DNA of 59,798 bases, the filler included. It is 4 parts of 4 records of this genome, joined end to end, with 100 filler letters (N's around TTAATTAATTAA, not from the genome) between each part and the next. Parts side by side here need not be neighbours in the genome. Positions count along the whole stretch, not along the records: positions 19,503 to 31,639 come from DRR723986_11690; 3 more parts are not named here. One strand, given 5' to 3'. The notes beneath the pieces are model-generated. The model made no database searches, was not told the origin of the DNA, and was given only the letters and a program-made list of their open reading frames with translations. The position numbers and the translations under genes are program-made. Positions within the stretch are counted from its first letter, which is position 1; the number at the start of each line of letters is the position of its first letter. This document shows, in pieces, positions 14,893 through 31,739 of this stretch.

Positions 14893-14893
14893 C

Positions 14894-15991
14894 ATGCTGA
14901 GGCTTTGCATGACAACCGGCATGGCACTTTTCCTGTCGCTTGCTCCCGCTCACGCCGAACCGGTGTTCGGCGCCAGCGCCCGCAGCAAGGAAGCCGTGTC
15001 GCTCTGGCTGGGGTCGGCGTGGCGGGACTATACGAGCCGCCACATGTCCCCGGAAGGAGCCGTCATCGACGATGCCAATGAAGGCATCAGTCACAGCGAA
15101 GGCCAGGGTTACGGCATGGTTCTGGCCGTCGCGGTGGATGACCGCGAGACCTTCAAGCTGATCCGCGACTACACCTACGAGAACCTGCAGGTGCGCAAGG
15201 ATCACCTGTTTGCCTGGAAGGTGCTGCACACGCCGGAAGGTCCCAATGTCGCCGACACCAACAACGCGACGGACGGGGACCTGCTGATCGCCTGGGCGCT
15301 GATCGAGGCCTACAAGAGCTGGGGAGATCCTGAAGACCTTGCCTCGGCAAAGGTCGTTCTGGCGGATATCGCCGCAACGCTTCTTCAGCAAACCGCCCTC
15401 GGACCGGTTCTTGTTCCCGGCAGTGAAGGGTTCGTCTCCGGCGATCATCAGACCGTCACGGTCAACCCGTCCTACTGGGTCTATCCGGCCCTCGAAACCA
15501 TCGCAGAGTTCGATACGTCCGCGAACTGGGGCGAAGTTGCGGTTGTCGGAGAGGACGTCCTGGACCTTTCCCAGAGGGCTCCAAGCTACCTGCCACCGGA
15601 TTGGGTCGATATCGGCGGCCTCAAGCTGGTGCCTTCCGATAAGTTCACACCTGAATTCGGCTACAATGCCATCCGGGTTCCGCTCTATCTCGCGCTCTCC
15701 AGAAATGCCCTGCGCGTGAAAAAGGCGGCGGATTTTTCAACGCTACGCGGCTTTGCCGATCCCCGCGGCCCATCGGTTACGCAGATCGTCACGGGCGAGC
15801 CGAAGAGTGTCATGGGTGGTATCGGTTTTCGCGCAATTGCCGCCCTGACCAGATGTATGGACAAGGCCGAGCCATTCCCGTCCGAACTGCTGCAGATCGG
15901 CACAGACGACTATTACTCCACAACACTTCAGATCTTCACGATTCTCGCAATTGCAGAGAGGTATCCGCAATGTCTTTCACCAGAATGGTAA
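14894..15991 (+). CDS. bcsZ: Endo-1,4-beta-glucanase, glycoside hydrolase family 8 (BcsZ/CelC)
   Basis: SHSEGQGYGM, NNATDGDLLIAWAL, NPSYW, PPDW, FGYNAIRVPLY and YYS motifs; signal peptide. Confidence 0.93.
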   Translation: MLRLCMTTGMALFLSLAPAHAEPVFGASARSKEAVSLWLGSAWRDYTSRHMSPEGAVIDDANEGISHSEGQGYGMVLAVAVDDRETFKLIRDYTYENLQVRKDHLFAWKVLHTPEGPNVADTNNATDGDLLIAWALIEAYKSWGDPEDLASAKVVLADIAATLLQQTALGPVLVPGSEGFVSGDHQTVTVNPSYWVYPALETIAEFDTSANWGEVAVVGEDVLDLSQRAPSYLPPDWVDIGGLKLVPSDKFTPEFGYNAIRVPLYLALSRNALRVKKAADFSTLRGFADPRGPSVTQIVTGEPKSVMGGIGFRAIAALTRCMDKAEPFPSELLQIGTDDYYSTTLQIFTILAIAERYPQCLSPEW

Positions 15992-17763
15992 TTGCCTCCT
16001 TCGCGCTGGCGTTTGCGACCAACGGTTCCCTGGCACAGTCCGCTCCGTGGGAAGCCGCGCCGCAACAACAACTGCCCGGCGGCTCTCCGTTTGTCCTGCA
16101 GGCACCTGAAACCGGTGTTTTGCCGGTCCAGCAGGCCAATGTTTCGCCTTTCGCGCTTTCGGTCACCCAGCCAGGGGCCGCACAGTCCGCAGCCCCGGCG
16201 GCCCCCGCGGCTGCCAAGGTCGATGAAACGGCCCTGCGCTACTACGCACAGAACGGTGAGATCGGCCGCGTGTCTGCGGAAATCAAGCGGCTGAAGTCTC
16301 TTCATCCGGACTGGCAACCGCCGGAAAACATCTACGACCGCAACCGGATCGAGGTGAACGAACAGCCGCTCTGGGATCTCTTCGCCACCGGCCGGACCCA
16401 GGAGCTCTACGCCAAGATCCGGGAATACATAAATCTCTACCCGGGTTATGAGCCTTCAGCCGAATTGCGCCGACAGATCATCAATGCCGAAGCGCGAAAG
16501 ACCCTCATTCAGGCGTCCGAACTGGGCAACGCCCAGGAGGTCATCAAGATCGCGGTGAAGAACTCCGATCTTCTGACCTGCCAGGAAATCGACATTATCT
16601 GGCGGACAGCCAGAGCTCTCAACGAGACCGGTCAGGACGTCAAGGCGCTCGAAGCCTACAAGTACATCCTTGCCAACTGCGCCAATGAGGACGAGCGCAA
16701 GGCCACCGTGCAAAAGGCTGCCGAAGTACTGCCGCGCAACGCGGTGGAGCAGCTTGTCGCCTACGGCAGAACCGGATTGGACGGTCGCTCGGAATTCAAC
16801 GAAATCTACCTGGACCTGTTGCGTGGTGAAGTTGGCGAGGGCGCCACCGATCCCGCCATGCTGGTCGACAAATCGGATCTGGACGCACTCGCCAATTCGG
16901 CTGCAAAACTCCAGAACCCGAACGATGCCGAACTTCTTGGCTGGTATTACTATTCCCGCGAAGAGTTCAAGACCGCCACCAAATGGTTCCAGACAGCCTA
17001 CAAGCTTCGCCCCTCGCCAAAGGCCATCGAAGGCATGGTCGTCTCCATGAAGGAAGATGGCGAATACGAGGAAGCCGAGGAACTTGCCTACAAGAACCGG
17101 CGCAAGGATCCGCTCATCCTCAAGGCATATCTGGAAGTCGTTTCGATCCAGCTTCTGGAAGGCTATGGCACCGAGATGGATTTCAAGCGCCTGTCGAGAT
17201 TTGCGAACGTCGTCCAGGATGCGCAATCGCCGATTGCCGCCCAGGTGTTCGGCTGGCACTTCTACAACATGCTTGAACTCGATGAAGCTGAAATCTGGTT
17301 TGCCAAGTCGATGGAGTTCCAGCCGAACGAATCCGCGGCCGTCGGCCAGATCGTGGTTGCTCAGCGCAAAAAGCAGAAAGCCCGCGAACGACAGTTGATC
17401 GCGCAATGGTCAACCAAATTCCCGGCGATCAAGACCCTCGGCGGCGCACAGCTTGCGTCCGCTTCCGAAGAACGCAGCCGCTCCTCTGGCGGATCGCGCT
17501 CCTCCGGGTCTTCCTACCTGCGCTCTGCCGAACAGGAGATCAGCACCGGAGATTATGCAGGCGCTCTGCCGTACCTTGAAAGAAACGCAATGAGCGGGCG
17601 CGAAAGCCGCAAGGCAAAACTGCTTCGGGCCTGGGCGCTGTATCACACGGGCCGGTCGAAAGAGGCGCACAAGCTCTTCGCGGAAGCCGACAAGGCGGGA
17701 TCCACGACCGAAACCCGCCAGGGCAAGTGGTTCTCTGAAAAGAAGATGTACCGCTACAACTAA
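15970..17763 (+). CDS. TPR-rich cellulose biosynthesis protein (CelG/BcsK/BcsC-like, no beta-barrel)
   Basis: Signal peptide from the ATG at 15970 (MSFTRMVIASFALAFA), DETALRYYA motif and helical TPR-like repeats (LGWYYY, FGWHFY). Last gene of a celABCG-like order. Confidence 0.78.
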   Translation: MSFTRMVIASFALAFATNGSLAQSAPWEAAPQQQLPGGSPFVLQAPETGVLPVQQANVSPFALSVTQPGAAQSAAPAAPAAAKVDETALRYYAQNGEIGRVSAEIKRLKSLHPDWQPPENIYDRNRIEVNEQPLWDLFATGRTQELYAKIREYINLYPGYEPSAELRRQIINAEARKTLIQASELGNAQEVIKIAVKNSDLLTCQEIDIIWRTARALNETGQDVKALEAYKYILANCANEDERKATVQKAAEVLPRNAVEQLVAYGRTGLDGRSEFNEIYLDLLRGEVGEGATDPAMLVDKSDLDALANSAAKLQNPNDAELLGWYYYSREEFKTATKWFQTAYKLRPSPKAIEGMVVSMKEDGEYEEAEELAYKNRRKDPLILKAYLEVVSIQLLEGYGTEMDFKRLSRFANVVQDAQSPIAAQVFGWHFYNMLELDEAEIWFAKSMEFQPNESAAVGQIVVAQRKKQKARERQLIAQWSTKFPAIKTLGGAQLASASEERSRSSGGSRSSGSSYLRSAEQEISTGDYAGALPYLERNAMSGRESRKAKLLRAWALYHTGRSKEAHKLFAEADKAGSTTETRQGKWFSEKKMYRYN

Positions 17764-17938: not shown

Positions 17939-18391
17939 TTACAGCTTCTGGAAATCCTCCAGAATGTCGAGCAGCTGTGTCAGTTTCTCCTTGCCGATGA
18001 CCTCTTCTATGCGCGCCGCGATTGCCTTGGCGTCATCGAGCTTATCCTCGATGATTGCCTGTCCGGCCGGCGTAATCGCCACCGTTTGCTTGCGCCGGTC
18101 CTTCTCGTCCGCCTGACGGGTCACCAGCCCCTTTTCCAGAAGCGTCTGAACGATCCTGGTCTGGCTGGGGAGCAACAGACAGGCCCGCTCTGCCAGGGTC
18201 GAGGCATCCTGTGGACCGAATTCTTCCAGCACCCGCAGGATGCGCCACTGCTGTTCGGTGATGCCGCAGTCGGAGAGCATCTCGCGGATCGGGCCCATGA
18301 CCTTCTCGCGCGCCCGGATCAGCGCAATCGGGATGGAGCGTCTTGTGGACGGCAGCGCCGGGCCGTCAGCGGGTTCAGTGTCGTCGATCAT
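17939..18391 (-). CDS. hpaR: Homoprotocatechuate degradation operon repressor HpaR (MarR family)
   Basis: RSIPIALIRAREKVM, ITEQQWRILRVL, LLLPSQTRI and DRRK motifs; divergent from hpaF-hpaE. Confidence 0.92.
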   Translation of the reverse strand: MIDDTEPADGPALPSTRRSIPIALIRAREKVMGPIREMLSDCGITEQQWRILRVLEEFGPQDASTLAERACLLLPSQTRIVQTLLEKGLVTRQADEKDRRKQTVAITPAGQAIIEDKLDDAKAIAARIEEVIGKEKLTQLLDILEDFQKL

Positions 18392-18434
18392 GCAAGGTCC
18401 ATAGCGAATTGGCAGATTATTAGACACAAAAAGT

Positions 18435-18473
18435 TTGACAGTTTCGATCTCATATATTTAACATAGCAAATAT
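18435..18473 (+). promoter_or_regulatory. Sigma70 promoter (TTGACA-N18-TAACAT) overlapped by a candidate HpaR operator ATATTT-AACATAGC-AAATAT
   Basis: TTGACA at 18435-18440, TAACAT at 18459-18464 and a palindrome at 18454-18473, upstream of hpaF. Confidence 0.6.
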
Positions 18474-18493
18474 TGCACTGTTAAGGAAATCCC

Positions 18494-18880
18494 ATGCCGC
18501 ACATATCGCTGGAATATTCCGCCAACCTGGAACAGCGGGCCGACATAAAGGCCCTGTGCGAGCATCTGCGTGCGCAAGCCGCGACCATCGATGCCCTTCC
18601 CATGCCCGGTCTGCGGGTGCGGGCCATACGATGCGACCACTATGCAATCGCCGACGGCGACCCGAAACATGCCTTCATCGACATTTCCGTACGCCTTCGC
18701 GCCGGACGGCCGGACGACGTCAAGCGCGACGCAGCGGAGCGTCTGTTCAAGGCCGCAAAGGCTTTCCTGGAACCGGTCCTGGTCACCAGTTCGCTCGCGC
18801 TATCGCTTGAGATGCGCGACATCGACCCGGACCTTTCGCCCAAGACGGGCACCATTCGCGACCATTTGGGGACTGTCTGA
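18494..18880 (+). CDS. hpaF: 5-carboxymethyl-2-hydroxymuconate delta-isomerase
   Basis: N-terminal catalytic Pro (MPHISLEYSANL), GLRVRA and RAGR motifs; tautomerase-family size; hpa context. Confidence 0.92.
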   Translation: MPHISLEYSANLEQRADIKALCEHLRAQAATIDALPMPGLRVRAIRCDHYAIADGDPKHAFIDISVRLRAGRPDDVKRDAAERLFKAAKAFLEPVLVTSSLALSLEMRDIDPDLSPKTGTIRDHLGTV

Positions 18881-18883
18881 CCC

Positions 18884-19402
18884 ATGTCTGACCTTCAGAA
18901 CAACATCGAAAAACTTGAGACCTACCTCGCAAGGTTCCGGGAGACCGGCGTGCTGAACCAGATCGGCGGCAAGGCCTGCCCCGCAGCCTCCGGTGCGACA
19001 TTCGAAACCACCTCCCCGGTGGACGACAGCCTGATCTGCAAGGTTGCCAGGGGGGATGCTGCCGATATCGATGCTGCAGCCAGGGCCGCCAAGGAGGCCT
19101 TTCCGGCATGGCGCGATTTGGCCGCGACGGAGCGCAAGAAAATCCTTCACAAGATTGCCGACGGCATTGTCGCCCGCGCCGAAGAAATCGCCTTTTGCGA
19201 ATGCTGGGATACCGGTCAGGCCTTGCGTTTCATGTCGAAGGCCGCCCTGCGCGGCGCCGAGAACTTCCGCTTCTTCGCTGACAAGGCGCCAGGTGCCCGC
19301 GACGGTCAGGCCCTGCCATCATCGACCCTCATGAACGTCACGACGCGTCTTCCGATCGGACCGGTCGGTGTGATCACGCCCTGGAACACGCCTTTCATGC
19401 TG
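18884..19402 (+). CDS. hpaE: 5-carboxymethyl-2-hydroxymuconate semialdehyde dehydrogenase, truncated by contig end
   Basis: ECWDTGQ, RGAENFRFFAD and GVITPWNTPFML motifs. Confidence 0.9.
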
Positions 19403-19502
19403 NNNNNNNNNNNNNNNNNNNNNNNNNNNNNNNNNNNNNNNNNNNNTTAATTAATTAANNNNNNNNNNNNNNNNNNNNNNNNNNNNNNNNNNNNNNNNNN
19501 NN
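19403..19502. other. Artificial contig spacer
   Basis: 100 nt: Ns flanking TTAATTAATTAA, which gives stops in all six frames. Confidence 0.99.
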
Positions 19503-19521
19503 CCCCGCCGATAAGGTGGGG
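19503..19521 (-). terminator. Probable terminator hairpin after the methyltransferase
   Basis: Imperfect CCCCGCC-GATAA-GGTGGGG inverted repeat about 22 nt past the stop. Any U-tract would lie beyond the contig edge. Confidence 0.4.
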
Positions 19522-19543
19522 TGTTGTCTTGCGGGCAATCGCA

Positions 19544-20326
19544 TCAGCCGGGTTTGCGCCCGCGCAGGTGATGAGGGCAATGTTCCCCGGTTTGCAGCAC
19601 CTCGATCATGGCGGTCCATGTCAGGATCTGACCGGCAATGAACTCCACCCCGTGGGCCGCCTCCAGCCGCGGGCGATCCGACCCAGAAAGAAACGCCAGT
19701 TCAGTGACGGCGACATCGCGATACCACGGGTTACGGTTGCGCAACCCAACCTCGGCGAACCCGGCAACATCCAGCGCACGACGGTAGCGATTGGGCGATG
19801 CCATGGCAAAATCCAGATCCTCGGCCTTGAGATAGGCGGTCATCTCGGCAGAGGGCGTACCATCATGCGAGATAAGCCAATCCGAAGCTGCGAACCATCC
19901 GCCGGGGCCAAGCACGCGAAACACGTCTGCGGCAAGCGCCTCCTTGTCGGGGATATGCAGGATCGAGTCCTTGGAATAGACGATGTCGAACCTGCCGGGG
20001 TCAAACGGCAGGGGCCCCGGCGTTACCAGACAGATGTCAATCCGGTCGGTCAGCCCCGCAGCATCGACCCGGCGACGCGCGGCGGCACAGACCTGGTCTT
20101 CCACGTCGATGCCCGTGACCGAGGCTGCCCCCATGTCGCGCACCAGCATCACGGCGATGGCACCGGACCCACAGCCGATATCAAGCACGTGTTTTCCGGC
20201 AACGTCGATCCCATCGAGCACTCTGGCCGCTTCCTCGGCACCGCCGGGCGAAAGAAAGCCGTCGCCCCAGATATCCTCCAGAAAGGCAATGTGCTGATCG
20301 TCGTAGAGAAGGTCACTTTCACTCAT
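19544..20326 (-). CDS. Class I SAM-dependent methyltransferase, phosphoethanolamine N-methyltransferase-like
   Basis: LEDIWGDGFLSPGG, VLDIGCGSG, FDIVYSKDSILHIPDK and LGPGG...SDW motifs; translationally coupled to the upstream Rieske gene. Confidence 0.85.
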   Translation of the reverse strand: MSESDLLYDDQHIAFLEDIWGDGFLSPGGAEEAARVLDGIDVAGKHVLDIGCGSGAIAVMLVRDMGAASVTGIDVEDQVCAAARRRVDAAGLTDRIDICLVTPGPLPFDPGRFDIVYSKDSILHIPDKEALAADVFRVLGPGGWFAASDWLISHDGTPSAEMTAYLKAEDLDFAMASPNRYRRALDVAGFAEVGLRNRNPWYRDVAVTELAFLSGSDRPRLEAAHGVEFIAGQILTWTAMIEVLQTGEHCPHHLRGRKPG

Positions 20327-21573
20327 TCACGGGTCTCCGCGTCAAGGCCAGCTTGCAGGCGCGCGGCGTAGAGATCCAGAAACCTGCGGGTATAGGCCTC
20401 CATGCCGGCAAGTTGCCCGGGTTGATAATAGCGTGACCGCACGCCTTGCTGGTTCTTTTCGATGATCAGCTTGTCCGCGAGCGTCGTGATGTCCCACAAC
20501 CAGATCAACTGTGCGAGGTCAAAGTCTCTGCCCTCAACCGCATCGTCGCGCACCAGCCAGATGATTTCCTGAATCGAGTTGTCCTTGTCGACGGGCACGA
20601 AGCGATAGATGACCATGTGGTCGCAGTAGACCAGCATCGGGTTGAAAATCCCGACATAAAGATCGCACGCCCCCCCGTCATAACCCTTGAGAGATCCCAG
20701 AAGCGGGGCAACCGGCTGCCCTGACTGGCTGCCGGTCACGTAGCCATCATGAAGCGAATGGCGGCTGGCGGTATAATCCACCGAGCCTGGCGGGCAGTCC
20801 TTTCCGACGCGGTCCACGCAATCGGTTGGAATGCCCAATTCCCGGGCGCGCGGATGCATCGCGTCGTTGAATGGCTTTACCCGGTCGGCGTCCATATGGG
20901 TGGGGTGGGTGCGCGCGAATTCGGGGTGGGCCGGAGCGCAATGGTAGCATTCGTTGTAGTTTTCGACCAACAGCTTCCAATTCGCCGCCACCGGGTAGCT
21001 GGCGCGATGCGCGATCCGGGTTTTTTCCAGCCCGAACGGGGCCAGAAGCGGCGTCAGTTCGGCGCGCATCCGGTCGAAGGCGCTTGGCTGTTCGGCGAAG
21101 GATACGAAGATCATCCCGGCGAACACCTCGACCGGTACCGGCGTCAGCCCATTGGTTGCCTTGTCGAAATCCGCCCCCATCATCCGGGCTGAAAACAGGC
21201 TGCCATCGAGATTGTAGGTCCACGCATGATAGGGGCAGGTAAAGCGCCGCGCCTTGCCGCTGTGGTCCAGGCACACGCGCGAGCCGCGATGCCGGCAGAC
21301 ATTGGCCAGCGCCCGCACCTTGCCCGCGTCGTCACGGCACAGGATCACGGATTCATCCAGCACCTCGAACAGGAAATAATCGCCAGGTTCAGGGATCTGC
21401 GTGATGTGCCCGGCGAAATGCCAGTCCGGCATGAACACATCGCGCATGTCGCGGGCGAACATTTCTTCCGAATGATAGAAATCCTGTTCCAGCGCGTGAT
21501 CCGCGCGGCGGCGGGACAGCATTGCCTGTACGTCTGGCAGCGGGCGAAGGGCGGATGTTGCAGGCCGGGTCAT
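20323..21573 (-). CDS. Rieske non-heme iron oxygenase alpha subunit (GbcA/Stc2/choline monooxygenase-like)
   Basis: Rieske CRHRGS...CPYHAW; mononuclear Fe site NYNECYHCAPAHPE; distal Asp in DKLIIEKNQQG. Alternative TTG start at 21579. Confidence 0.92.
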   Translation of the reverse strand: MTRPATSALRPLPDVQAMLSRRRADHALEQDFYHSEEMFARDMRDVFMPDWHFAGHITQIPEPGDYFLFEVLDESVILCRDDAGKVRALANVCRHRGSRVCLDHSGKARRFTCPYHAWTYNLDGSLFSARMMGADFDKATNGLTPVPVEVFAGMIFVSFAEQPSAFDRMRAELTPLLAPFGLEKTRIAHRASYPVAANWKLLVENYNECYHCAPAHPEFARTHPTHMDADRVKPFNDAMHPRARELGIPTDCVDRVGKDCPPGSVDYTASRHSLHDGYVTGSQSGQPVAPLLGSLKGYDGGACDLYVGIFNPMLVYCDHMVIYRFVPVDKDNSIQEIIWLVRDDAVEGRDFDLAQLIWLWDITTLADKLIIEKNQQGVRSRYYQPGQLAGMEAYTRRFLDLYAARLQAGLDAETRE

Positions 21574-21588
21574 GGGCAATTGGTCCTC

Positions 21589-22692
21589 TTACTCGAACAG
21601 GATGATCGAGTCAGCGCCCCAGCCAACCGACATCCTGCTGCCTGCCGGGGCGATCTGGCGTCCGGCTGTGTTGCGCATCGAGATTGTCACGGTGGTCTCT
21701 GCCCCTGCCAACTTGACCCCGTAATAGGTCATGTCCCCGTAATAGGAGGAGGACACGACCTCTGCATCGGTGCGACGTTCGGAATGGTCGTCTCCCTCGA
21801 AAAGCAGGGTGAACATCTCGGGGCGCACCCCCACATTCGTCACTTGGGCATCGGTCAGGGTGGCGGGCACATTGTCCAACGGCACCTCGCACGGGCCAAG
21901 CGCAGCGATGTCCAGCGACAGATGGGTCGCGCTGCGTCCGGTCACTTTGGCATCAAGGAAGTTCATGACGCCGATGAACGACGCGACCCGGCGGTTTCCC
22001 GGGCGCCGGTAAAGTTCCTGCGGGCTGGCCAGCTGCGCGATTTCACCGTCGAACATCACGGCGATGCGGTCGGACATGATCATCGCTTCTTCCTGATCAT
22101 GGGTAATCAGCACGAAGGTGATGCCAATCGACTGCTGCAACTCTCTCAGTTCGACCTGCATCTGTTCACGCAGTTTCTTGTCGAGCGCCGACAAGGGTTC
22201 GTCGAGCAGGATCACCTTGGGGCGCAGAACCAGGGCTCGTGCCAGGGCCACACGCTGGCGTTGTCCGCCGGACAACTCATGCGCCGCACGCCCGCCATAC
22301 CCGGCCAGATCAACCATCGCCAGGGCCTTGTCGACCTCGGTTTTTATCTGGTCTTTGGGCATCTTGCGGGCTTTCAGACCGTAGCCGACATTGTCGAAGA
22401 CGCTCAGATGCGGAAAGATCGCGTAGTTCTGGAACACCATGTTGGTGGGCCTGCGATTGGCCGGGATGCCCGCCATCGGCTTGCCGTCGATCTCTATCGA
22501 CCCCGAGCTTGGATCGTCAAAGCCAGAGATCAGGCGCAAAAGCGTTGTCTTGCCACATCCTGACGGACCAAGGATCGAAAAGAACTCGCCCTCGTTCACC
22601 GCCATGTCGATTCCGCGCAAGGCCTCTACCGCGCCGAAGGATTTCCTGACGCTGGTCAGCGTAATGATGGGTTTTTGTCGCGTGCTCGTCAT
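21589..22692 (-). CDS. ABC transporter ATP-binding protein, PotA family
   Basis: GPSGCGKTT, VFQNYAIFPHL, LSGGQRQRVALARAL, LLDEPLSALD and a C-terminal TOBE domain. Start moved to the ATG at 22692. Confidence 0.93.
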   Translation of the reverse strand: MTSTRQKPIITLTSVRKSFGAVEALRGIDMAVNEGEFFSILGPSGCGKTTLLRLISGFDDPSSGSIEIDGKPMAGIPANRRPTNMVFQNYAIFPHLSVFDNVGYGLKARKMPKDQIKTEVDKALAMVDLAGYGGRAAHELSGGQRQRVALARALVLRPKVILLDEPLSALDKKLREQMQVELRELQQSIGITFVLITHDQEEAMIMSDRIAVMFDGEIAQLASPQELYRRPGNRRVASFIGVMNFLDAKVTGRSATHLSLDIAALGPCEVPLDNVPATLTDAQVTNVGVRPEMFTLLFEGDDHSERRTDAEVVSSSYYGDMTYYGVKLAGAETTVTISMRNTAGRQIAPAGSRMSVGWGADSIILFE

Positions 22693-22694
22693 GC

Positions 22695-23528
22695 TCAGAT
22701 CAGGCCCCCGGCGGATGCGTCGTTCAATCCGCGTTTCGTTGCAGCGCGCCGCCGCACCCATTCCCCAAGCACCAGCATCAGGATCGAGAGCGACAGAAGG
22801 ATCGTCCCGAGCGCCATGATCGAGGGCAACTTGGCCGGGAAGCGCAGTTGGCTCCAGATATAGACGGGCAGGGTGACATCCGTGCCGGTCAGAAAGAACG
22901 CGATGATGAATTCGTCGAGCGAGATGGTAAAGCAGATCAGCATGCTCGAAATCATGCCCGGCAGAACCAGCGGCAGGGTGACCCGGCGAAACGTGCCCCA
23001 CCGGCTTTCGCCGAGATCGTAGGACGCCTCTTCAAGGGTGCGGTCCAGCCCGCTGTAGGCGGAATTCAGGATGGCGATAGAGAATGGCACGCAGATCAGC
23101 ACATGCCCGGCCACAACCGTCCAAAGCGACAGGGAAAGGCCCAGTTGCATCAGCATCACCAGCAATGCCACCGCTACGATGATTTCCGGCAACACCAGCG
23201 GCAGCATGATGAAACCGACAATCCCGCCTTTCGCCGGAAAGCGGTATCGCGCAATGGCCCGCGCAGCGCACGCCCCCAGGATGGTGCTCATCACCGCGGT
23301 GGTGAAGCTGACGAACAGGCTGTTGCGCACGGCACTGTGCAGCGCCTCGGTTTCCCACAGCACCGTGAACCAGTTGGTGGTAAAGCCCGAAAGGGGAAAG
23401 GCGATGATTGTCGCATCGTTGAAGGCAAACATTGGCAGCAGCACGACGGGGGCATAGAGGAAGATGATGAACCCGACAGCGTAGACAGTCAGCCAGTTTC
23501 CAGAGAGAGCACGAGACAGCCTGATCAT
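22695..23528 (-). CDS. ABC transporter permease, PotC family
   Basis: FLYAP, PLSGFTTNWF, LEEASYDLG (EAA motif), SLDEF and TLPVYIWS. Confidence 0.92.
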   Translation of the reverse strand: MIRLSRALSGNWLTVYAVGFIIFLYAPVVLLPMFAFNDATIIAFPLSGFTTNWFTVLWETEALHSAVRNSLFVSFTTAVMSTILGACAARAIARYRFPAKGGIVGFIMLPLVLPEIIVAVALLVMLMQLGLSLSLWTVVAGHVLICVPFSIAILNSAYSGLDRTLEEASYDLGESRWGTFRRVTLPLVLPGMISSMLICFTISLDEFIIAFFLTGTDVTLPVYIWSQLRFPAKLPSIMALGTILLSLSILMLVLGEWVRRRAATKRGLNDASAGGLI

Positions 23529-24385
23529 TCGACCCGCCCCCCGAATTTGCGCCCGGCCAGATAGACGCACACGGCGATCACGCTGACCACCACCATCGAA
23601 ATGATGGCAAGCGCCGCCCCAAGCGGCGCATTGTTGGCCCGGCCCATCTGAACCTGGATCATGTTGGCGATCATCAACCCGTCCGTACCGCCGACCAGCT
23701 TGGGGGTGATGAAATCCCCAACCGTCGGGATCAGGACAATGATTGTCGCCGCGACAACGCCCGGCATCACCAGCGGCAGGGTGACCCGAAAGAACCGGCG
23801 CACCGGTCCATCCCCAAGGTCTTCCGCCGCTTCCAGCAAGGATCTGTCGATCTTTTCCATCGCGACGAAGATGGGCAGGATCGCAAAAGGCGCCCAGGCA
23901 TGAGCCAGGGTAATGACCACCGCATTGGCGTTGTACAGAATGAATGTCAGTGGTTCGTCAATCAGGCCGACCCCCTGCAAAGCCGAATTCAACACCCCGT
24001 TATAGCCAAGGATCACCTTCCACAGAAACACGCGCAGCAGGTAACTGGTCCAGAACGGAACGGTGATCAGGAACAGCCACAGCGTCTTGCGGCGCTTGAC
24101 CTTGAAGGACAGGAAGTAGGCCATCGGAAAGGCCAGCAGGACCGTTACAGCCGTGACCACCAACGAGATCACAAGCGATCTCAGCATGAGCACCCGGTAG
24201 ATCGGCTGGCCAAAGGCCTCGCGGTAGTTTTCGAGCGTCAGGGTGGTGTCGATATCCAGATAGTCCTGGGTCCAGAAACTGAAGGTGATCACCATTGCCA
24301 GCGGTGCCGCCAGCATGATGAGGGCGTAAACCAGGGGAGGGCCGATCAGGGTCAGTCCCTGCCTTGTTTCGCCGCCAGACCTCAT
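23525..24385 (-). CDS. ABC transporter permease, PotB family
   Basis: PFWTSYLLR, NGVLN, LLEAAEDLG and GDFITPKLVGG. Confidence 0.92.
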   Translation of the reverse strand: MRSGGETRQGLTLIGPPLVYALIMLAAPLAMVITFSFWTQDYLDIDTTLTLENYREAFGQPIYRVLMLRSLVISLVVTAVTVLLAFPMAYFLSFKVKRRKTLWLFLITVPFWTSYLLRVFLWKVILGYNGVLNSALQGVGLIDEPLTFILYNANAVVITLAHAWAPFAILPIFVAMEKIDRSLLEAAEDLGDGPVRRFFRVTLPLVMPGVVAATIIVLIPTVGDFITPKLVGGTDGLMIANMIQVQMGRANNAPLGAALAIISMVVVSVIAVCVYLAGRKFGGRVE

Positions 24386-24437
24386 GGCTCAACCCAGGTG
24401 AATGCGATTTCGGCGTGGCTGACGTTTTGGCGCATCG

Positions 24438-25637
24438 TCACGTACCGTCGCCGATCAGCTCGGCATTTCGATGCCGCAGGACACCGGGCGCCGGTTCGTC
24501 CTCGTTGAGTACGGGGAACAGGCGGCGCAGCTCGTCATGATAGCTGCGCACTCCGTTTTCCAGGTCCGACAGGATGACCCCGTCGAAGCCGCTGGAAAAT
24601 GCCGCTTCCCAACACCATTCGATCAGCTGTTCATCCTCTTTCGTGGTAATGCGGTCGATCCGGCCGCTCAGATAGCGCGCGACACGCATCTGACGATCTT
24701 CGTCAGGTCGTTTGTAACACGCCCCGCGCTGGATAGTGTGGCCATTTTCGATCGGGAACTCGTGATAGTAGATCACTGAATCCGGGTAGAGCCCGAACAC
24801 CAGGTTCGGGAACACCCCGATATAGAGCCAGGCCCGCTTGTGATTGTCATCCATGCGAGGAACGTCGGGTAGCAGCTTCTTGTAGTTGCGCACGCTCCAC
24901 AGGCGGCTATCGGCCTCGCGGAACGTCGAAAAGGACCGGCTGGTGCCGCTGTCGAATGGTTCGTCGAAATAGTTGCTGCCGAACAGGTCATGCAGGCCGG
25001 GATGGGCCATAGGAACGTGATAGCCTTCGTTGTCCACATCCCGGACGCATTTCCAGTTGGCCTTCACATCCTCGATCCAGATGCCGTTCCCGTCGGGCTC
25101 CAGCGCGGCAAGATCGTACTGCGCGATCTCATTATCGAACTTCGCCAGCACCTGTGACAGGGGCGGCTGCGGACCGGGCTTGAACCGCACGAAAACAAAG
25201 CCGTTCCAGATGTCCATTTCGATCGGTTTCAGACCCCACTTTACCGGGTCGAGATCGGGCAGGGTGGCGGGCATGGCCGCGCCGCGCAAGGTGCCGTCGA
25301 GATTGTAGGCCCACCCGTGAAACGGGCAGATGATTGCCGACCGGCAATGGCCCTTGTCATCTGCGACCACGCGCGATCCACGGTGGCGACACAGGTTGTG
25401 AAAGGCGCGCACCACCCCATCCTGACCACGCAAGACAAGCGCCCGTTCTCCGACCATGTCCAGGGCGATGTAGTCGCCCGGCTCGGGCAGGTCGTTCTCG
25501 TGGCAGACCAATTGCCAGTGCCGCCGAAAGAGCTGCTCTTTCTCTTCTTCCAGCATCTCCTTGCTGAAATAGCTCCAGGCTGGCAGGCCGCCGCGATCCC
25601 AGTCGTTCCCAGTTACGTCGGTGTTGCCATCTGCCAT
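24438..25637 (-). CDS. Second Rieske non-heme iron oxygenase alpha subunit (quaternary-amine oxygenase group)
   Basis: CRHRGS...CPFHGW, ANWKCVRDVDNEGYHVPMAHPGL and EDEQL. Start moved to the ATG at 25637. Confidence 0.9.
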   Translation of the reverse strand: MADGNTDVTGNDWDRGGLPAWSYFSKEMLEEEKEQLFRRHWQLVCHENDLPEPGDYIALDMVGERALVLRGQDGVVRAFHNLCRHRGSRVVADDKGHCRSAIICPFHGWAYNLDGTLRGAAMPATLPDLDPVKWGLKPIEMDIWNGFVFVRFKPGPQPPLSQVLAKFDNEIAQYDLAALEPDGNGIWIEDVKANWKCVRDVDNEGYHVPMAHPGLHDLFGSNYFDEPFDSGTSRSFSTFREADSRLWSVRNYKKLLPDVPRMDDNHKRAWLYIGVFPNLVFGLYPDSVIYYHEFPIENGHTIQRGACYKRPDEDRQMRVARYLSGRIDRITTKEDEQLIEWCWEAAFSSGFDGVILSDLENGVRSYHDELRRLFPVLNEDEPAPGVLRHRNAELIGDGT

Positions 25638-25682
25638 CTTGCGCCGTCCTTCTGCTGTCCGTGGAAGCGTAGCAAGAAATAT

Positions 25683-25694
25683 TTGAGCGCTCAA
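25683..25694. promoter_or_regulatory. Perfect palindrome TTGAGCGCTCAA; candidate BetI/TetR-type operator
   Basis: 12-bp perfect palindrome in a short AT-rich patch about 46 nt upstream of the Rieske ATG. Confidence 0.55.
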
Positions 25695-25857
25695 TTAAAT
25701 TTTACGAAGCCGGTTTCGGGCCTTGGGTCAGCTAACTCTGCCTGGACCGGACATGGGCAGGGGTAAGCTTGGAGGTTTCAGGGGGGTGTCAGTCCGATAT
25801 GTGCAGGTCTGCGTCTTCGGATCCTGGTACTTCTCCAGTCCGATCGGACATCCGCGA

Positions 25858-26544
25858 TCAGCCGCCTCCCAGGGCGAAGGGCGCGGACCGGTGTGCAAGG
25901 GCCGCGAGGATGGCCGATGCAACAGGATGGGGCCCCGGTCGGTCAAAGCGCACCTCGCTGCGCAGCGTCTGCCCCGGCATCACGAAGCGCGCCGCAATGC
26001 GGTGCGGCCCTTCCGCTTCCGTGGACCGGATCGTGACCTTGGTGGCGGCGATCCCCGGACCGCACAAGGCCGCTGCCATGGCCGTATTCAGGTGATCTGG
26101 AAACCGTGCTGCGGCGTCGGCCAGAGGGCCACGGAAAACCACCCCGGGCCGATCCGCCAACCCCGGTGCGGATTGCCGGATGAAGAGTTGCGCGGGCAGG
26201 CCGGGCGGGCAGATTGTCGGGCCAGAAATCCAGCCTGTGAACAGATGCATCCGATTGCCGGTGCTGCGCATCAACGCCAGCAGATCGTCGCGCAGGGCTG
26301 GGTCGATCAGGGCAGCAGCACCAACGGTCCACAAGGCACCATGACAAAGCGCGCGGGCCCCAAAGCGGCGCAATGCCTGCGGGCCAGCGGTGTCAATGGT
26401 GATGTCAGCGGCAGGCAGATTGCGTGCATCCCGTCCAAGCACGTCGAGCAGCTGATAGCCGGGCAGGCCGCGCAATCCCTCTGCGACGCAAGACCCGATC
26501 CGGCCCCGTCCGATGAGCGTGATGGTTGTGGGGGCGCACTGCAT
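25858..26544 (-). CDS. Aspartate dehydrogenase-like (NadX/DUF108) Rossmann protein, divergent
   Basis: N-terminal ITLIGRGRIG, IDTAGPQAL and C-terminal VVFRGPLADAAARFPDHLNTAMAAALCGPG...PHRI resemble DUF108. Confidence 0.65.
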   Translation of the reverse strand: MQCAPTTITLIGRGRIGSCVAEGLRGLPGYQLLDVLGRDARNLPAADITIDTAGPQALRRFGARALCHGALWTVGAAALIDPALRDDLLALMRSTGNRMHLFTGWISGPTICPPGLPAQLFIRQSAPGLADRPGVVFRGPLADAAARFPDHLNTAMAAALCGPGIAATKVTIRSTEAEGPHRIAARFVMPGQTLRSEVRFDRPGPHPVASAILAALAHRSAPFALGGG

Positions 26545-26559
26545 GGTCAGCGTGCAGAC

Positions 26560-26589
26560 GCCCCGCCCCAGATGACATGGGGGCGGGGC
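26560..26589 (-). terminator. Stem-loop after the substrate-binding protein gene
   Basis: GCCCCGCCCC-N10-GGGGCGGGGC inverted repeat. Confidence 0.55.
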
Positions 26590-26597
26590 AAGCAGGG

Positions 26598-27857
26598 TTA
26601 CTGGATGGACATCATGAAGCCCGACACTTCCTCCAGCGAGATGTAGCGCTGCTCGGTCATGCCGCTGTCATCGAAGACCCAGGACACGGCCGGGGCCGAC
26701 ACGTTGCCGTTGGGGTCGAAGGTCACCGCGCCGGTTGCGCCTTGATAGGACACCGACCCGCCTTCGGACAGAACCGCCATTGCGCGGGCAAAGCCTTCGA
26801 CCGTGGCGGGGATCGCCTCGCCATCGGGGTCGGTGACACGCGGCACCTGCGCGGCGATATCCGCGCCGGTCGCATCACGGCCTGCCGCGTGATAGGCCAG
26901 CAGAGCAATGGCTGCCGCGTCAAAGCTGTTCGACAGGCCCGGGCCACTGGGGGCGGACCCGAAATGCGCGGCATAGGCATCGACGAAGGCCTCGGCGCTC
27001 GGAACGCGGGGGCTGGACGTGTCGGTGCCGACGAAGTCACCCAGATTGTCCAGACCAACAGCGGTGCGGAAGTCATCCGACCGCAGCGAATTGGCGCCGA
27101 TCATGACCGAGGTGCCACCAAGGCCAATCCATTCCCGCACGAAGGAAATCCCCTCGGTCGGGTAGAGCGCGAGGTAAAGCGCACCGGGCTGATCGCGCAA
27201 CGCTTGCGTGGCCTCTGCGCGATAGCTTGGCTGCGCGTCGTTAAGCGCGATCGAGGCATGAACCTCGATCCCCACAGCTTCGAACGCGGCGACAGCCATG
27301 CGACCGATATCCTGCCCCCAGTCATCGTTCTTGTAGACGACGGTGATGCTTTCGATCCCGGCATCGCGCGCCAGCATGGCGGCAACCGCCGCCTGCACGT
27401 CCGCCGTTGCGAAGGTGCGGAACCACAGCCCGCGTGCTTCGCCCGACGCGGCGATTTCCGTCAGACGGGTCGAGGACGAGCAGCACGACATCTGCATGAC
27501 GCCCGCAGGCGCGGTGACCGAGGTCAGGATCGGAATGGTGATGCCCGAGGACACGGTGCCGATCAGCAATTGCACCTGGTCGATATCGACAAGCGCGCGC
27601 GCCGCATCGACGCCGACGCGGCCATCATTCTGATCGTCACGCAGGATCATGTTGACGTCGCAGCCGTCAACTCCGCCTGCTTCGTTGATCATTTCACCGA
27701 CCCAGAGAGCCGTCTCTGCAATCGGGCGGCCCCAGTCCACCGAGGTCGGGTACAGCGTGCCGACATTGACACTACAATCTTGCGCGAGCGCGGTGCCCGC
27801 CTGAAGGCCGATCGCCAGGGCCGAGGCTCCGGCGAGTCCGAGAATATACCGTTTCAT
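26598..27857 (-). CDS. ABC transporter substrate-binding protein, branched-chain amino acid (Liv/HAAT) family
   Basis: Signal peptide, INEAGGVDG, FRT...D, NDDWG and YQGATGAVTFDPNGN. Confidence 0.9.
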   Translation of the reverse strand: MKRYILGLAGASALAIGLQAGTALAQDCSVNVGTLYPTSVDWGRPIAETALWVGEMINEAGGVDGCDVNMILRDDQNDGRVGVDAARALVDIDQVQLLIGTVSSGITIPILTSVTAPAGVMQMSCCSSSTRLTEIAASGEARGLWFRTFATADVQAAVAAMLARDAGIESITVVYKNDDWGQDIGRMAVAAFEAVGIEVHASIALNDAQPSYRAEATQALRDQPGALYLALYPTEGISFVREWIGLGGTSVMIGANSLRSDDFRTAVGLDNLGDFVGTDTSSPRVPSAEAFVDAYAAHFGSAPSGPGLSNSFDAAAIALLAYHAAGRDATGADIAAQVPRVTDPDGEAIPATVEGFARAMAVLSEGGSVSYQGATGAVTFDPNGNVSAPAVSWVFDDSGMTEQRYISLEEVSGFMMSIQ

Positions 27858-27864
27858 GGTCAGA

Positions 27865-28842
27865 TCACTCCTTGTTGGATGTAGGTGCAGCCTTGTCGGC
27901 CGTCGTGGTTCGGTTGGTGGAAATTCTTTCTGGCAGCAGACCTTCCGGCCGCCAGAGCAGCATTGTTACAATCAGCGTCCCGATCAGGATATACTGGATC
28001 GAGCCCGCGTCGAGTTGCATCGAGGCTGGAACAAGCCGGGTCAGGGCGAAGCCGCTCATCGTCCACGCGCCCCAGATCAGCACCGCCCCAAGGACGGCGC
28101 CGCGATTGTTGCCCGCGCCACCGACGATCAGCATCGCCCATATCTGGAAGGTCAGGATCGGCAACATGTCCTGCGGGCTGACGAAAGCGGTGTAGGACAC
28201 GTAAAGCCCGCCGCCTGCACCCATGATCGCCGCACCGATGACCAGCGACCACAGCCGCAGGCGCGCCGGGCTTTTGCCAAGCGCCCGGGCGGCAGTTTCG
28301 TCTTCTCTGATGGCGCGCAGGGCGCGGCCAAAGGGGGAATGGACCAGCCGTTCGATCCCCCACCAGACCAGGGCGAGTGCTACAAGAACCATCGCCAGAA
28401 ACACGACGCCATAGAGGAAATTGTTGTCCACATAGGCTTCCAGCGGCCGGGGGAAGCCACGCAGGCCGCGCGCGCCCCCGGTCAGCCATTGGGAATTGCG
28501 CGCCAGCGATTCCAGCGCGACGGCGACGCCAAAGGTCGAGATGGCCAGATAGTCGTGCCTCAACCTCAGCGTCAGCAGCCCCACCACCCAGGCCAGCGCC
28601 GCCGCCAGCAGGATACCCCCGCCAAGTGCGACCAGATAGGGCAGCTCGAAGCCCCCGAACTGGCCCGGCTCGGGACGGCCGCCCAACATCATCGTGCCGT
28701 AGGCTCCGGCTCCGAAGAAGGCGACGACACCGCCGTTGAATAGCCCGGTGTAGCCCCATTGCAGGTTCAACCCCAGGGTGATGATGGCCATGATTCCGGC
28801 CATGGTCAGGAAGAAGGTCAGGTAGGAAATGACTCCGATCAT
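27865..28842 (-). CDS. Branched-chain amino acid ABC permease (LivM-like)
   Basis: GLNLQWGYTGLFN, LRLRHDYLAIST, SPFGRALRAIREDE and GGAGNN. Confidence 0.92.
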   Translation of the reverse strand: MIGVISYLTFFLTMAGIMAIITLGLNLQWGYTGLFNGGVVAFFGAGAYGTMMLGGRPEPGQFGGFELPYLVALGGGILLAAALAWVVGLLTLRLRHDYLAISTFGVAVALESLARNSQWLTGGARGLRGFPRPLEAYVDNNFLYGVVFLAMVLVALALVWWGIERLVHSPFGRALRAIREDETAARALGKSPARLRLWSLVIGAAIMGAGGGLYVSYTAFVSPQDMLPILTFQIWAMLIVGGAGNNRGAVLGAVLIWGAWTMSGFALTRLVPASMQLDAGSIQYILIGTLIVTMLLWRPEGLLPERISTNRTTTADKAAPTSNKE

Positions 28843-29753
28843 CGCTGGTCCTCACCAAACAGGCCCTGTGGGCGCAGCATCAGGACAGCCAGAATGATCA
28901 GGAACGGCATCGCCGGGGCGTATCCTGCCGGCAGGATCATCAACGCCAGCCCCGAGGCAATTCCGACGATGAACCCGCCGAGAACCGCGCCATAAACGCT
29001 GCCGATGCCACCGACGATGGTGGCCGCGAAGACCGGTAACAGGAACACCGGCCCGATCATCGGGTTCAACTGGTTCGTAAGTGCATAGAGCGTGCCTGCC
29101 GCCGCCGAGAGTCCGCCTGCGATGATCCAGACCGCTGCGATCACGCTCGACAGCCGGACGCCCGCAACCTGTGCAAGGGCCGGGTTTTCGGCCACGGCGC
29201 GCAGGGCAAAGCCGAAGGTGGTGCGGGTCAGGATCAGGTGCAGGACCAGCATCAGCACCAGGGCCAGGACCAGCACGAAGACCTGATCGGGTTTGATCAG
29301 GATCAGCGGGTCGAAGCTGAGGATGCGGGCGCGTGCGATCTCTTGTGAATAAAGCTGCGCGTGGTGGCCGAAGATCAGAACGATCACGTTGCGGATGATC
29401 AGCGCCACGCCGAAACTCGCAAAGACCATCGACAGCGGGTCGGCCTTCTGCCGGATGCGGCGGAACACCAGCCAGTCGATCACAACCGCCGACAGGCCGG
29501 TCAGCACCATGGCGATGATCATCGACAGCACCAATGCACCGGTAAGGGTCAGCGGCGCAAAGGCCTGATCCAGCACCGGCACCAACGACGAAAAAAGCCG
29601 GTCGAACACCAGGGCCGCATAGGCGCCGATGGCCAGCAGTTCCGAATAGGCGAAATTGGCGAAGCGCAGCATGTGCATGATCAGCGTCAGCCCGATTGCG
29701 CCGAGCGAGATGATTGCCCCCGTCAGAATGCCGTCAAGAACGCTCTGGATCAT
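28839..29753 (-). CDS. Branched-chain amino acid ABC permease (LivH-like)
   Basis: GAIGLTL...FANFA, FGFALRAVAEN, GGIGSVYGA and RPQGLFG. Confidence 0.92.
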   Translation of the reverse strand: MIQSVLDGILTGAIISLGAIGLTLIMHMLRFANFAYSELLAIGAYAALVFDRLFSSLVPVLDQAFAPLTLTGALVLSMIIAMVLTGLSAVVIDWLVFRRIRQKADPLSMVFASFGVALIIRNVIVLIFGHHAQLYSQEIARARILSFDPLILIKPDQVFVLVLALVLMLVLHLILTRTTFGFALRAVAENPALAQVAGVRLSSVIAAVWIIAGGLSAAAGTLYALTNQLNPMIGPVFLLPVFAATIVGGIGSVYGAVLGGFIVGIASGLALMILPAGYAPAMPFLIILAVLMLRPQGLFGEDQR

Positions 29754-31639: not shown

Positions 31640-31739
31640 NNNNNNNNNNNNNNNNNNNNNNNNNNNNNNNNNNNNNNNNNNNNTTAATTAATTAANNNNN
31701 NNNNNNNNNNNNNNNNNNNNNNNNNNNNNNNNNNNNNNN
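31640..31739. other. Artificial contig spacer
   Basis: Ns flanking TTAATTAATTAA. Confidence 0.99.

Follow-up and report, generated by a model that had tools for sequence, protein, structure and literature searches.

A conserved operon of two Rieske oxygenases, a Pot-type transporter and a phosphoethanolamine methyltransferase-like protein, possibly part of a catabolic regulon for N-methylated amines

Gene content and coupling of the operon

The DNA analysed here is a window of 59,798 nucleotides, by which we mean the whole stretch at its full length, and its central feature is a set of six consecutive minus-strand open reading frames, arranged in tandem at positions 19544-25694, on a 12.1-kb contig (19503-31639). 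In the order in which they are read, these genes encode a Rieske oxygenase (RO2), two ABC permeases (PotB- and PotC-like), an ABC ATPase (PotA-like), a second Rieske oxygenase (RO1), and a methyltransferase (MT) that depends on S-adenosylmethionine (SAM). The genes, together with two features that flank them, are located as follows.

25683..25694, no strand: 12-bp perfect palindrome TTGAGCGCTCAA, 46 bases upstream of the RO2 ATG; probable TetR operator
24438..25637, minus strand: RO2, Rieske monooxygenase alpha subunit of 399 amino acids (Pfam Rieske and Ring_hydroxyl_A; maximal open reading frame to 25694)
23525..24385, minus strand: PotB-like ABC permease (BPD_transp_1)
22695..23528, minus strand: PotC-like ABC permease (BPD_transp_1; maximal open reading frame to 23570)
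21589..22692, minus strand: PotA-like ABC ATPase with a TOBE domain (ABC_tran and TOBE_2)
20323..21573, minus strand: RO1, group V Rieske monooxygenase alpha subunit (Pfam Rieske and Ring_hydroxyl_A; maximal open reading frame to 21579)
19544..20326, minus strand: MT, single-domain SAM-dependent methyltransferase (Methyltransf_25/11, class I)
19403..19502, no strand: artificial contig linker N44-TTAATTAATTAA-N44; the contig ends 41 bp beyond the MT stop codon

An earlier note on this DNA had described the six genes as tightly coupled in this order, and the junctions agree with that description. The stop and start codons of potB and potC (potC ATG at 23528), and those of RO1 and MT, overlap as ATGA; elsewhere, potA follows potC after 2 nt, RO1 follows potA after 9-15 nt, and potB follows RO2 after 52 nt. 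Because these junctions overlap or nearly abut, the six genes are read as one translationally coupled unit. All six frames are open, with their metal and SAM motifs intact. RO2 most likely begins at the ATG at 25637, which has AAGGA upstream and gives a protein of 399 amino acids (399-403 in relatives), and not at the TTG at 25694, which falls inside the conserved palindrome. Domain searches of the window reveal neither a PotD-type binding protein nor an FNR-type reductase. Scans for promoter and terminator consensus sequences gave counts close to those obtained with shuffled sequence and were not used. In addition, RNA runs X14 and X16 placed on 19503-26600 just 20-50-base pieces over conserved ABC-ATPase stretches, which speak neither for nor against transcription.

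The window is not one molecule, given that three artificial linkers (N44-TTAATTAATTAA-N44, at 19403-19502, 31640-31739 and 53697-53796) join four contigs. Near-identical contigs from public runs X1 and X3, with 2 and 1 differing letters, respectively, over the compared parts, extend 3346 and 1879 bases past the contig end at MT. The DNA therefore goes on past MT in nature, and genes missing from the window copy of the cluster described below are attributed to the contig end.

The oxygenases, methyltransferase and transporter

Both oxygenases possess the Rieske CxH...CxxH ligands (C95-H97...C115-H118 in RO1 and C83-H85...C104-H107 in RO2) and the histidines of the iron site (H213/H218 in RO1; H207/H212 in RO2, where the iron motif spans residues 202-212). 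An RO2 residue aligns with the iron carboxylate ligand of CntA, Asp323, and RO1 has an Asp in the corresponding segment. The E-x-Y-H motif that had been reported for the bridging position of both proteins is indeed present, ECYH in RO1 (residues 210-213) and EGYH in RO2 aligning with Glu205-x-Tyr-His208 of CntA and with ECYH of Stc2. The two enzymes are also clearly divergent, as had been claimed, with 37% identity across the N-terminal 197 residues only and no detectable similarity in the catalytic half.

In PMC7948474 and PMC10952381, group V Rieske oxygenases are described as acting on quaternary ammonium compounds, with Glu205 in the bridging role in CntA. Group Va (CntA, choline monooxygenase, OxyBAC) is said there to hold the ammonium group through a cation-pi interaction with Tyr or Phe at position 203, group Vb (GbcA, BmoA, Stc2) to have Asn at this position and to demethylate a substrate whose carboxylate binds the iron, and many group V members to carry a Cys-x-x-Cys pair beside the iron (PMC7948474, PMC10952381). 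RO1 aligns over its full length with its best solved relatives, the Stc2-type structures 3n0q, 4qup and 3vca (E about 1e-66), and scores 305.7 bits against the curated GbcA model NF058607, for which the cut-off is 670 and RO2 scores 133.6 bits. The RO1 motif is ENYNECYHC in the window and ENY[NM]ECYHC in 16 of 16 orthologs from related loci, where the Stc2 structures have ENNRECYHC; hence all 16 orthologs have the Va-type Tyr at CntA position 203 together with the Cys-x-x-Cys pair (ECYHC). RO1 therefore has Tyr203 and the Cys206/Cys209 pair in common with CntA, although its alignment with that enzyme is confined to the N-terminal half, and it resembles Stc2 and GbcA/BmoA in its full-length alignment and GbcA model match but differs from group Vb in scoring under the GbcA cut-off and in having Tyr in place of the defining Asn. 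Judged by these comparisons, RO1 reads as a hybrid that is Stc2/GbcA-like overall and has a CntA-type Tyr.

RO2 has CntA as its best solved relative (E 6e-34). Its motif, DVDNEGYHV, is seen in 24 of 24 locus orthologs and in 120 of 120 database hits (67-90% identity), and places Asp at the position of CntA Tyr203, with Gly and Val replacing the Cys pair (EGYHV). The Va signature is thus present in RO1 but not in RO2, and the Asn of Vb is present in neither (Tyr in RO1, Asp in RO2), neither of which reaches the GbcA cut-off. RO2 fits neither described subgroup of group V, and neither oxygenase is an ortholog of a characterised enzyme. The earlier note had taken a bridging Glu, as such, to mark the enzymes that act on quaternary amines. 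Both proteins do fall in the Glu-bridged group V lineage, but the equation is too simple for RO2, which has neither Tyr/Phe nor Asn at the decisive position.

The cluster resembles CntA/CntB (YeaW/YeaX) in the homotrimer-type, alpha-only Rieske fold, the bridging Glu, and the E-x-Y-H-x4-H iron motif, and differs from it in that no CntB-type reductase adjoins RO1 or RO2. No CntB/GbcB-type reductase gene is present in the window or among the recurrent neighbour families of related loci, and the sole NAD_binding_1 match in genome G062 lies 1.9 Mb from the cluster. In some relatives, an OYE/TMADH-like flavoprotein is encoded beside RO1, which is a point of likeness to the Stc2 system. PMC11759058 places Stc2 within a flavin-dependent multi-enzyme system, and reports that an OYE of the TMADH-like type was shown to demethylate N-methylproline.

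By sequence, MT is closest among solved structures to phosphoethanolamine N-methyltransferases (PMTs) from plants and nematodes, with E values from 8e-26 (AtPMT1) to 6e-18. When an AlphaFold2 model of MT, built on 15 family members (predicted local distance difference test score 89.8), was compared with solved structures using Foldseek, ranks 1-17 were all PMT structures with template modelling (TM) scores of 0.87-0.90 over 255-263 columns, and the next folds scored 0.73-0.75. In this model MT has the full PMT fold, substrate lid included, and the PMT-like assignment made in the earlier note is upheld by sequence (E 8e-26) and by fold (TM 0.87-0.90). A search of the ESM Atlas with MT returned generic methyltransferase cluster names and nothing else.

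Residue alignment of MT with AtPMT1 and HcPMT2 shows that Y8, D120-x3-H124, W150 and the aromatic residue at 165 are conserved. In PfPMT, according to PMC6705855, Tyr19 and His132 form the catalytic dyad and Tyr175, Arg179, Tyr181 and Lys247 are the phosphobase ligands. Tyr8 and His124 of MT align with the catalytic Tyr/His pair of the PMTs, and phmmer ranges place MT residue 8 opposite PfPMT residue 19. In the same alignment, Y165-x3-E169-x-L171 of MT lies opposite Y-x3-R-x-Y of AtPMT1 and HcPMT2; because the spacing of this motif is identical, Glu169 is mapped, via AtPMT1, to the phosphate-binding Arg179 of PfPMT. Glu169 and Leu171 thus stand where the PMTs have an Arg and a Tyr that are presumably those of phosphate binding, and both are found in 120 of 120 close MT homologs. 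Moreover, a C-terminal GEHCPHH motif (MT residues 247-253, window 19544-19585), which could be a metal site, occurs in 117 of the 120 and not in PMTs. Of 78 full-length members chosen to represent the wider superfamily (32-55% identity), 15 have Glu169, and HCPHH is never the majority state, so that Glu169 and GEHCPHH define the close MT family only.

MT therefore resembles the PMTs (PfPMT, AtPMT1/2, nematode PMT-2) in its whole-length fold match, its aligned catalytic residues and its size, which is that of the single-domain PfPMT, and differs from them in Glu169/Leu171, in the extra GEHCPHH motif, in being bacterial, and in being embedded in a catabolic-looking cluster. These features suggest that MT most likely uses the PMT mechanism to N-methylate an amine, and that its acceptor is probably not a phosphobase. 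MT, too, is not an ortholog of a characterised enzyme.

The importer parts find their best matches in Pot models, yet all score under the equivalog cut-offs. PotA reaches 368 bits against a cut-off of 482, misses that of TIGR01187 (potA) with 354.8 versus 355.6 bits, and scores 339.6 bits on PhnT2, and the two permeases score 206.8 bits (PotB model, cut-off 348) and 181.9 bits (PotC model, cut-off 326). Binding proteins encoded in relatives likewise match PotD/PotF models below the cut-offs. The ATPase, both permeases and the relatives' binding protein are therefore best on Pot models, giving a likeness to PotABCD/PotFGHI uptake with SpuC-type transamination, although the cluster's transporter differs in that every score lies below its equivalog cut-off. 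Genes for gamma-glutamylation were not seen in the cluster. In Ruegeria pomeroyi, the polyamine transporter assigned by experiment is another locus, SPO3466-3469 (PMC10130141). The carnitine transporter cntTUVW of the same organism was considered as an ortholog and rejected, since it is listed in the corresponding supplement as an ABC system of the peptide/nickel/opine family.

The larger cluster in relatives and its probable operator

The MT family comprises 2189 proteins at E<=1e-20 among 7710 candidates, and of 600 candidate stretches taken from species-representative genomes, 583 were confirmed to encode an MT relative, which is a lower bound on its occurrence. Among the matches listed, most carriers are marine Rhodobacteraceae, the others including Arenicellales, Ilumatobacter, Geminicoccus and Hwanghaeella. 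Carriers that can be cultured include Roseovarius mucosus DSM 17069, Roseovarius sp. 217, Ruegeria arenilitoris, Octadecabacter sp. and Shimia sediminis. RO2 is also abundant, with single 90%-identity clusters that contain up to 882 metagenome sequences. The source names of the cluster proteins in the databases searched are all generic or automatic, and none is functional. No description of this gene combination was found in the open full-text literature, which leaves subscription-only papers uncovered; the earlier note, too, had not recognised the combination as a described pathway.

In relatives, RO2, potB, potC, potA, RO1 (where it is present) and MT lie on one strand and form the first operon of a cluster of 17-20 kb. 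MT is followed by a gene for a PotD-like binding protein, sometimes by one for the OYE/TMADH-like flavoprotein, and then by genes encoding a class III omega-transaminase (AT3), a GcvT-like aminomethyltransferase, two CrtI-family FAD proteins, and a BetI-like TetR regulator. The closest relative, Nioella metagenome-assembled genome L006, has 81% DNA identity over exactly 19503-25702, and shows the complete arrangement past MT (SBP6, AT3, GcvT, two CrtI-like genes and TetR), the binding-protein gene ending 87 bp beyond MT. The same core is present on a plasmid of Ensifer adhaerens, and it is found in a different order on a Fuscovulum plasmid. The six genes are thus not a complete pathway by themselves; in relatives they make up one operon of a larger TetR-controlled cluster, which in the window is cut short by the contig end.

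The best 80 MT loci were mapped with the window proteins and with representatives of the recurrent neighbour families. Because greedy calling of open reading frames in these loci produced antisense artefacts (families f13, f15, f18, f21 and 'potC(as?)'), neighbour counts were taken from tblastn searches with representative proteins. Dropping 26 of the 80 loci, which had short flanks, left 54 with >=8 kb on either side of MT, and the partner genes are distributed over these well-flanked loci as follows.

AT3: 39/54
GcvT: 35/54
CrtI-like: 35/54
TetR: 35/54
potA: 33/54
RO2: 26/54
RO1: 13/54
PhyH dioxygenase: 7/54, never together with RO2
None of the partner genes: 13/54

The association of MT with RO2 is also evident across whole genomes. 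In 201 genomes drawn evenly from the family of one carrier, MT is present in 29, RO2 in 39 and both in 24, and in 18 of these 24 the two genes are within 10 kb of each other, giving an odds ratio for co-occurrence of 50 that is not corrected for kinship. The earlier note had named orthology of each gene to a characterised stc, gbc or cnt system, together with a methyltransferase that is not conserved in the neighbourhood, as grounds for abandoning its proposal; no curated ortholog threshold is reached by these proteins, and MT is conserved beside the other genes.

As for the downstream genes, the solved relatives of AT3 include putrescine, polyamine:pyruvate and gamma-aminobutyrate transaminases, the GcvT-like protein resembles GcvT and the tetrahydrofolate-binding part of trimethylamine N-oxide (TMAO) demethylase, and the CrtI-like flavoproteins have phytoene dehydrogenase as their best solved relative (E 4e-21). 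A link of the cluster to trimethylamine oxidation was considered and rejected, since TMAO demethylase is not enriched with MT (7 of 29 MT-positive versus 50 of 172 MT-negative genomes); with RO2 a weak trend is seen (16 of 39 genomes versus 41 of 162).

Several loci depart from the canonical arrangement. In seven (L013, L020, L025, L029, L032, L044 and L045), a PhyH-family 2-oxoglutarate dioxygenase is encoded directly after MT and RO2 is absent, and this dioxygenase may be a non-Rieske replacement for the hydroxylation step of RO2. In four loci from single-cell Rhodobacteraceae (L047, L070, L072 and L079), MT is followed by genes of the class I/II aminotransferase, ornithine cyclodeaminase and PALP families, a set that we take to resemble the diaminopropionate-forming SbnA/SbnB pairs and whose product would presumably be another possible amine acceptor. 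On the Fuscovulum ytuae plasmid (L086, 9522-11973), the permeases and MT are separated by a gene with a DMSP lyase family annotation and by an amidohydrolase gene, and no transaminase is present.

The PhyH loci also bear on the idea that the cluster takes up and processes 2-aminoethylphosphonate and its N-methylated forms. PhnY* is a member of the PhyH family, and a PhyH-family dioxygenase stands in RO2's place at 7 of the 54 loci; in addition, PotA scores nearly as high on PhnT2 as on PotA, a DAO neighbour matches a 'putative aminophosphonate oxidoreductase' model (151 bits), and AT3 matches PbfA (217 bits). The scores of the DAO neighbour and of AT3, however, are far under the curated cut-offs, and neither phosphonatase nor PhnA nor an HD-domain oxygenase was seen in the neighbourhoods scanned. 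Moreover, the binding proteins match PotD/PotF and not a phosphonate binder, and MT has a Glu where a ligand for phosphate or phosphonate would be expected. We therefore regard aminophosphonate metabolism as quite improbable.

The 12-bp palindrome TTGAGCGCTCAA upstream of RO2 recurs throughout these loci, with 46 exact copies observed in the 1.41 Mb of the 80 loci compared with about 0.08 expected. When copies with <=1 mismatch within -250..+30 of a gene's 5' end are counted, the palindrome is found at RO2 (20/33), TetR (30/47), the binding-protein gene SBP6 (16/35) and the first CrtI-like gene (29/54), but not at MT (0/78), potA (0/45), AT3 (0/52) or RO1 (0/18). Because it stands before RO2 and never before potA, RO1 or MT, the genes from RO2 to MT are read as one transcription unit, and because it is common to the starts of the cluster's operons, this unit appears tied to the others by one regulator. 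Most plausibly, TTGAGCGCTCAA is the operator of the cluster's BetI-like TetR repressor, which would bind there.

The best model for this TetR protein is BetI (99 bits, cut-off 201), a match that could also be read in terms of osmolyte metabolism. In that case, as in plants, the PMT-like enzyme would convert an imported amine or amino alcohol into a choline-like quaternary amine that RO1, as a choline-monooxygenase-like enzyme, would oxidise towards a betaine, and BetI-like control would balance accumulation against breakdown. Plant glycine betaine synthesis does combine PEAMT with a group Va Rieske choline monooxygenase, according to PMC7948474, PMC6356786 and PMC12473159, and the fold of MT is that of a PMT. 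On the other hand, the best 80 loci reveal no betaine aldehyde dehydrogenase in the conserved cluster, the PMT Arg is replaced in MT, and no curated model for betaine synthesis is reached (for sarcosine/dimethylglycine N-methyltransferase, 58.8 versus 550 bits). An ABC importer, an omega-transaminase and genes for tetrahydrofolate-dependent demethylation are, moreover, typical of catabolism. Synthesis or interconversion of a betaine-type osmolyte, including this form of its regulation, is thus a doubtful explanation of the cluster.

It might also be argued that the six genes simply adjoin one another and have no function in common, or that in this organism the block is a relic that no longer works, given that the window copy is without binding protein, regulator and reductase and that the RNA runs yielded just short fragments of conserved ABC-ATPase sequence. 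Against this stand the coupling of the genes, the conservation of their order across families and phyla, the common operator, the genome-wide co-occurrence, and the six uninterrupted frames with all metal and SAM motifs in place, all of which make this explanation very improbable.

The nearest compared genome, G001, gives a 98% match to the first contig (1-19402) that stops exactly at 19402, and has no match to any part of the operon's contig (19503-31639). MT is nearly absent from the genus of G001, with one partial match at 35% identity in 37 genomes, and the Liv-type binding protein adjoining the operon has a 62% relative in that genus. On the third contig (31740-53696), the catalytic half of RNase E has just 46-51% identity to G001 and four other genomes, and the phosphoenolpyruvate synthase with its regulatory kinase was not found in any of five genomes tested. 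More than one organism may have contributed the contigs, through a mixed bin or culture. Insertion of the operon into a homoprotocatechuate cluster, as might be concluded from the truncated hpaE-like open reading frame (18884-19450) beside MT, was rejected because the break is the artificial linker; given this linker and the G001 match that stops at 19402, the aldehyde-dehydrogenase fragment to its left is a contig end and not a gene disrupted by insertion.

Other features of the window lie outside the cluster. The first contig contains a cellulose synthase set (BcsA-like, BcsB, BcsZ and a TPR protein) at 10343-17763 and, at 17939-19402, the start of a homoprotocatechuate cluster (HpaR, CHMI and the N-terminus of HpaE). 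Upstream of RO2, an open reading frame of 228 amino acids (25858-26544, minus strand) gives partial matches to aspartate dehydrogenase domains and nothing more, and is followed by a Liv/Urt-type ABC transporter (26598-31572); neither is kept beside the cluster in other genomes. The fourth contig encodes a protein of 695 amino acids with RTX calcium-binding repeats (55675-57762, plus strand) in a stretch of raised G+C (0.67-0.72).

Proposed function and significance

We hold with about even confidence that the cluster is a catabolic regulon whose substrate is an N-methylated amine, small and cationic, that resembles either a polyamine or an omega-aminoalkyl-ammonium compound; our confidence in any single named compound as the substrate is much lower. 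The importer, the succession of enzymes of demethylation type, and the transaminase lead us to read the regulon as one of import, oxidative N-dealkylation and transamination. In outline, the BetI-like TetR repressor would control expression, and PotABC would import the amine together with a PotD-like binding protein, which we expect to be encoded just beyond the contig end. RO2 and RO1 would hydroxylate the carbon beside nitrogen, resulting in N-demethylation or C-N cleavage, with electrons that would probably be supplied by the cluster's OYE/TMADH-like flavoprotein or by a distant reductase. The pair of CrtI-family flavoproteins and the GcvT-like protein would strip the remaining N-methyl groups and transfer them to tetrahydrofolate, and the SpuC-like omega-transaminase AT3 would deaminate the resulting primary amine. 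MT would N-methylate a free amino group on the substrate or on a phosphate-less intermediate, its likeliest purpose being to convert mixed methylation states into a single one, recognised by oxygenases and repressor alike.

A polyamine-like substrate is preferred because three independent hints, namely the Pot-type transporter, Glu169 of MT and the Asp of RO2, suggest a second positive charge on the molecule. One known system that this regulon recalls is the cascade from glycine betaine to glycine (GbcAB, DgcAB and sarcosine oxidase, with BetI), with which it shares a Rieske oxygenase, an OYE/TMADH- or DMGDH-like flavoprotein, a tetrahydrofolate-binding GcvT module and a BetI-like repressor. 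The cluster differs from this cascade in having different orthologs throughout, CrtI-family flavoproteins in place of sarcosine oxidase, and, in addition, an omega-transaminase, a polyamine-type importer and a SAM methyltransferase. Cobalamin-dependent demethylation of glycine betaine by MtgBCD (PMC12478193) was set aside as relying on an unrelated enzyme type.

Several observations weigh against a catabolic regulon of this kind. The role of MT is the weakest part of the proposal, since a methylation that consumes SAM inside a demethylating catabolic cluster is left unexplained, and the 13 of 54 loci at which MT has no partner gene indicate that its role may be more general. We also infer only from motif spacing, through AtPMT1, that Glu169 occupies the position of PfPMT Arg179. 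The Tyr and Cys pair of RO1 are typical for trimethylammonium substrates that have a carboxylate or hydroxyl group, such as carnitine and choline, so that the RO1 signature would fit betaines as well as polyamines, and the BetI-like regulator suggests a choline- or betaine-like inducer. Furthermore, the flavoproteins are CrtI-like and not proven amine oxidases, a dedicated reductase was not found in the cluster (neither in the window nor among the recurrent neighbour families, the match in G062 being 1.9 Mb away), and the window copy ends with its contig before any binding protein, regulator or downstream gene.

The presence of both an enzyme that adds methyl groups and oxygenases that may remove them can be explained in other ways. 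Were MT to methylate an amine exhaustively, the resulting trimethylammonium group could serve as an activating tag that RO1 would bind through cation-pi contacts and hydroxylate, releasing trimethylamine and an aldehyde. Such a reaction would suit RO1, whose orthologs all keep the group Va Tyr and the Cys pair (16 of 16), given the meaning assigned to this signature in PMC7948474, and would also agree with the ATGA overlap of the RO1 stop and MT start codons; three successive N-methylations are, moreover, reported for PMTs. Nevertheless, 41 of the 54 well-flanked loci have MT without RO1, and TMAO demethylase, which would be needed for the trimethylamine released, is present in 7 of 29 MT-positive compared with 50 of 172 MT-negative genomes. 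This lack of enrichment and the frequency of MT without RO1 weigh against obligatory cleavage to trimethylamine. In addition, the use of three SAM per amine is costly, and the genes resembling GcvT, DMGDH and TMADH point to demethylation in steps and not to trimethylamine being lost whole. We consider methylation followed by cleavage to be unlikely.

SAM-dependent N-methylation might, alternatively, be an obligatory activating step in amine catabolism, in which the PMT-fold enzyme would make a quaternary ammonium 'handle' on the terminus of a di- or polyamine. The Asp-type RO2 and the hybrid, Tyr-type RO1 would together recognise and oxidise this handle, and the methyl groups would be recovered via GcvT and tetrahydrofolate in what would amount to a catalytic methyl cycle. 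Its logic would be comparable to the acetylate-then-oxidise breakdown of polyamines in animals. Taken with both of these parts, this is a tentative idea to which we assign a low probability.

Group V Rieske-based metabolism of methylated amines is already known as a kind. What appears to be new here, judging from the residues and gene order, is the combination of an Asp-signature oxygenase, a hybrid oxygenase and a phosphate-independent PMT-fold methyltransferase under one defined operator. Methylated amines, among them glycine betaine, choline, carnitine, TMAO and polyamines, are a major form in which carbon and nitrogen pass between marine bacteria and phytoplankton, as well as between rhizobia and plants. 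The cluster is common, as the presence of MT in 29 and of RO2 in 39 of 201 genomes of one family illustrates, and it is also carried on rhizobial plasmids. Knowing its substrate would extend the marine exchange network by one metabolite. Diatoms are a source of N-methylated polyamines, and a route with obligatory methylation, if true, could let marine bacteria use these compounds. The conserved operator and its TetR repressor offer a direct handle for finding the inducer. Such work would also explain the role of a phosphate-independent PMT-fold methyltransferase in bacteria, and would give the group V Rieske oxygenases a third signature class, the one with Asp at the cation-binding position.

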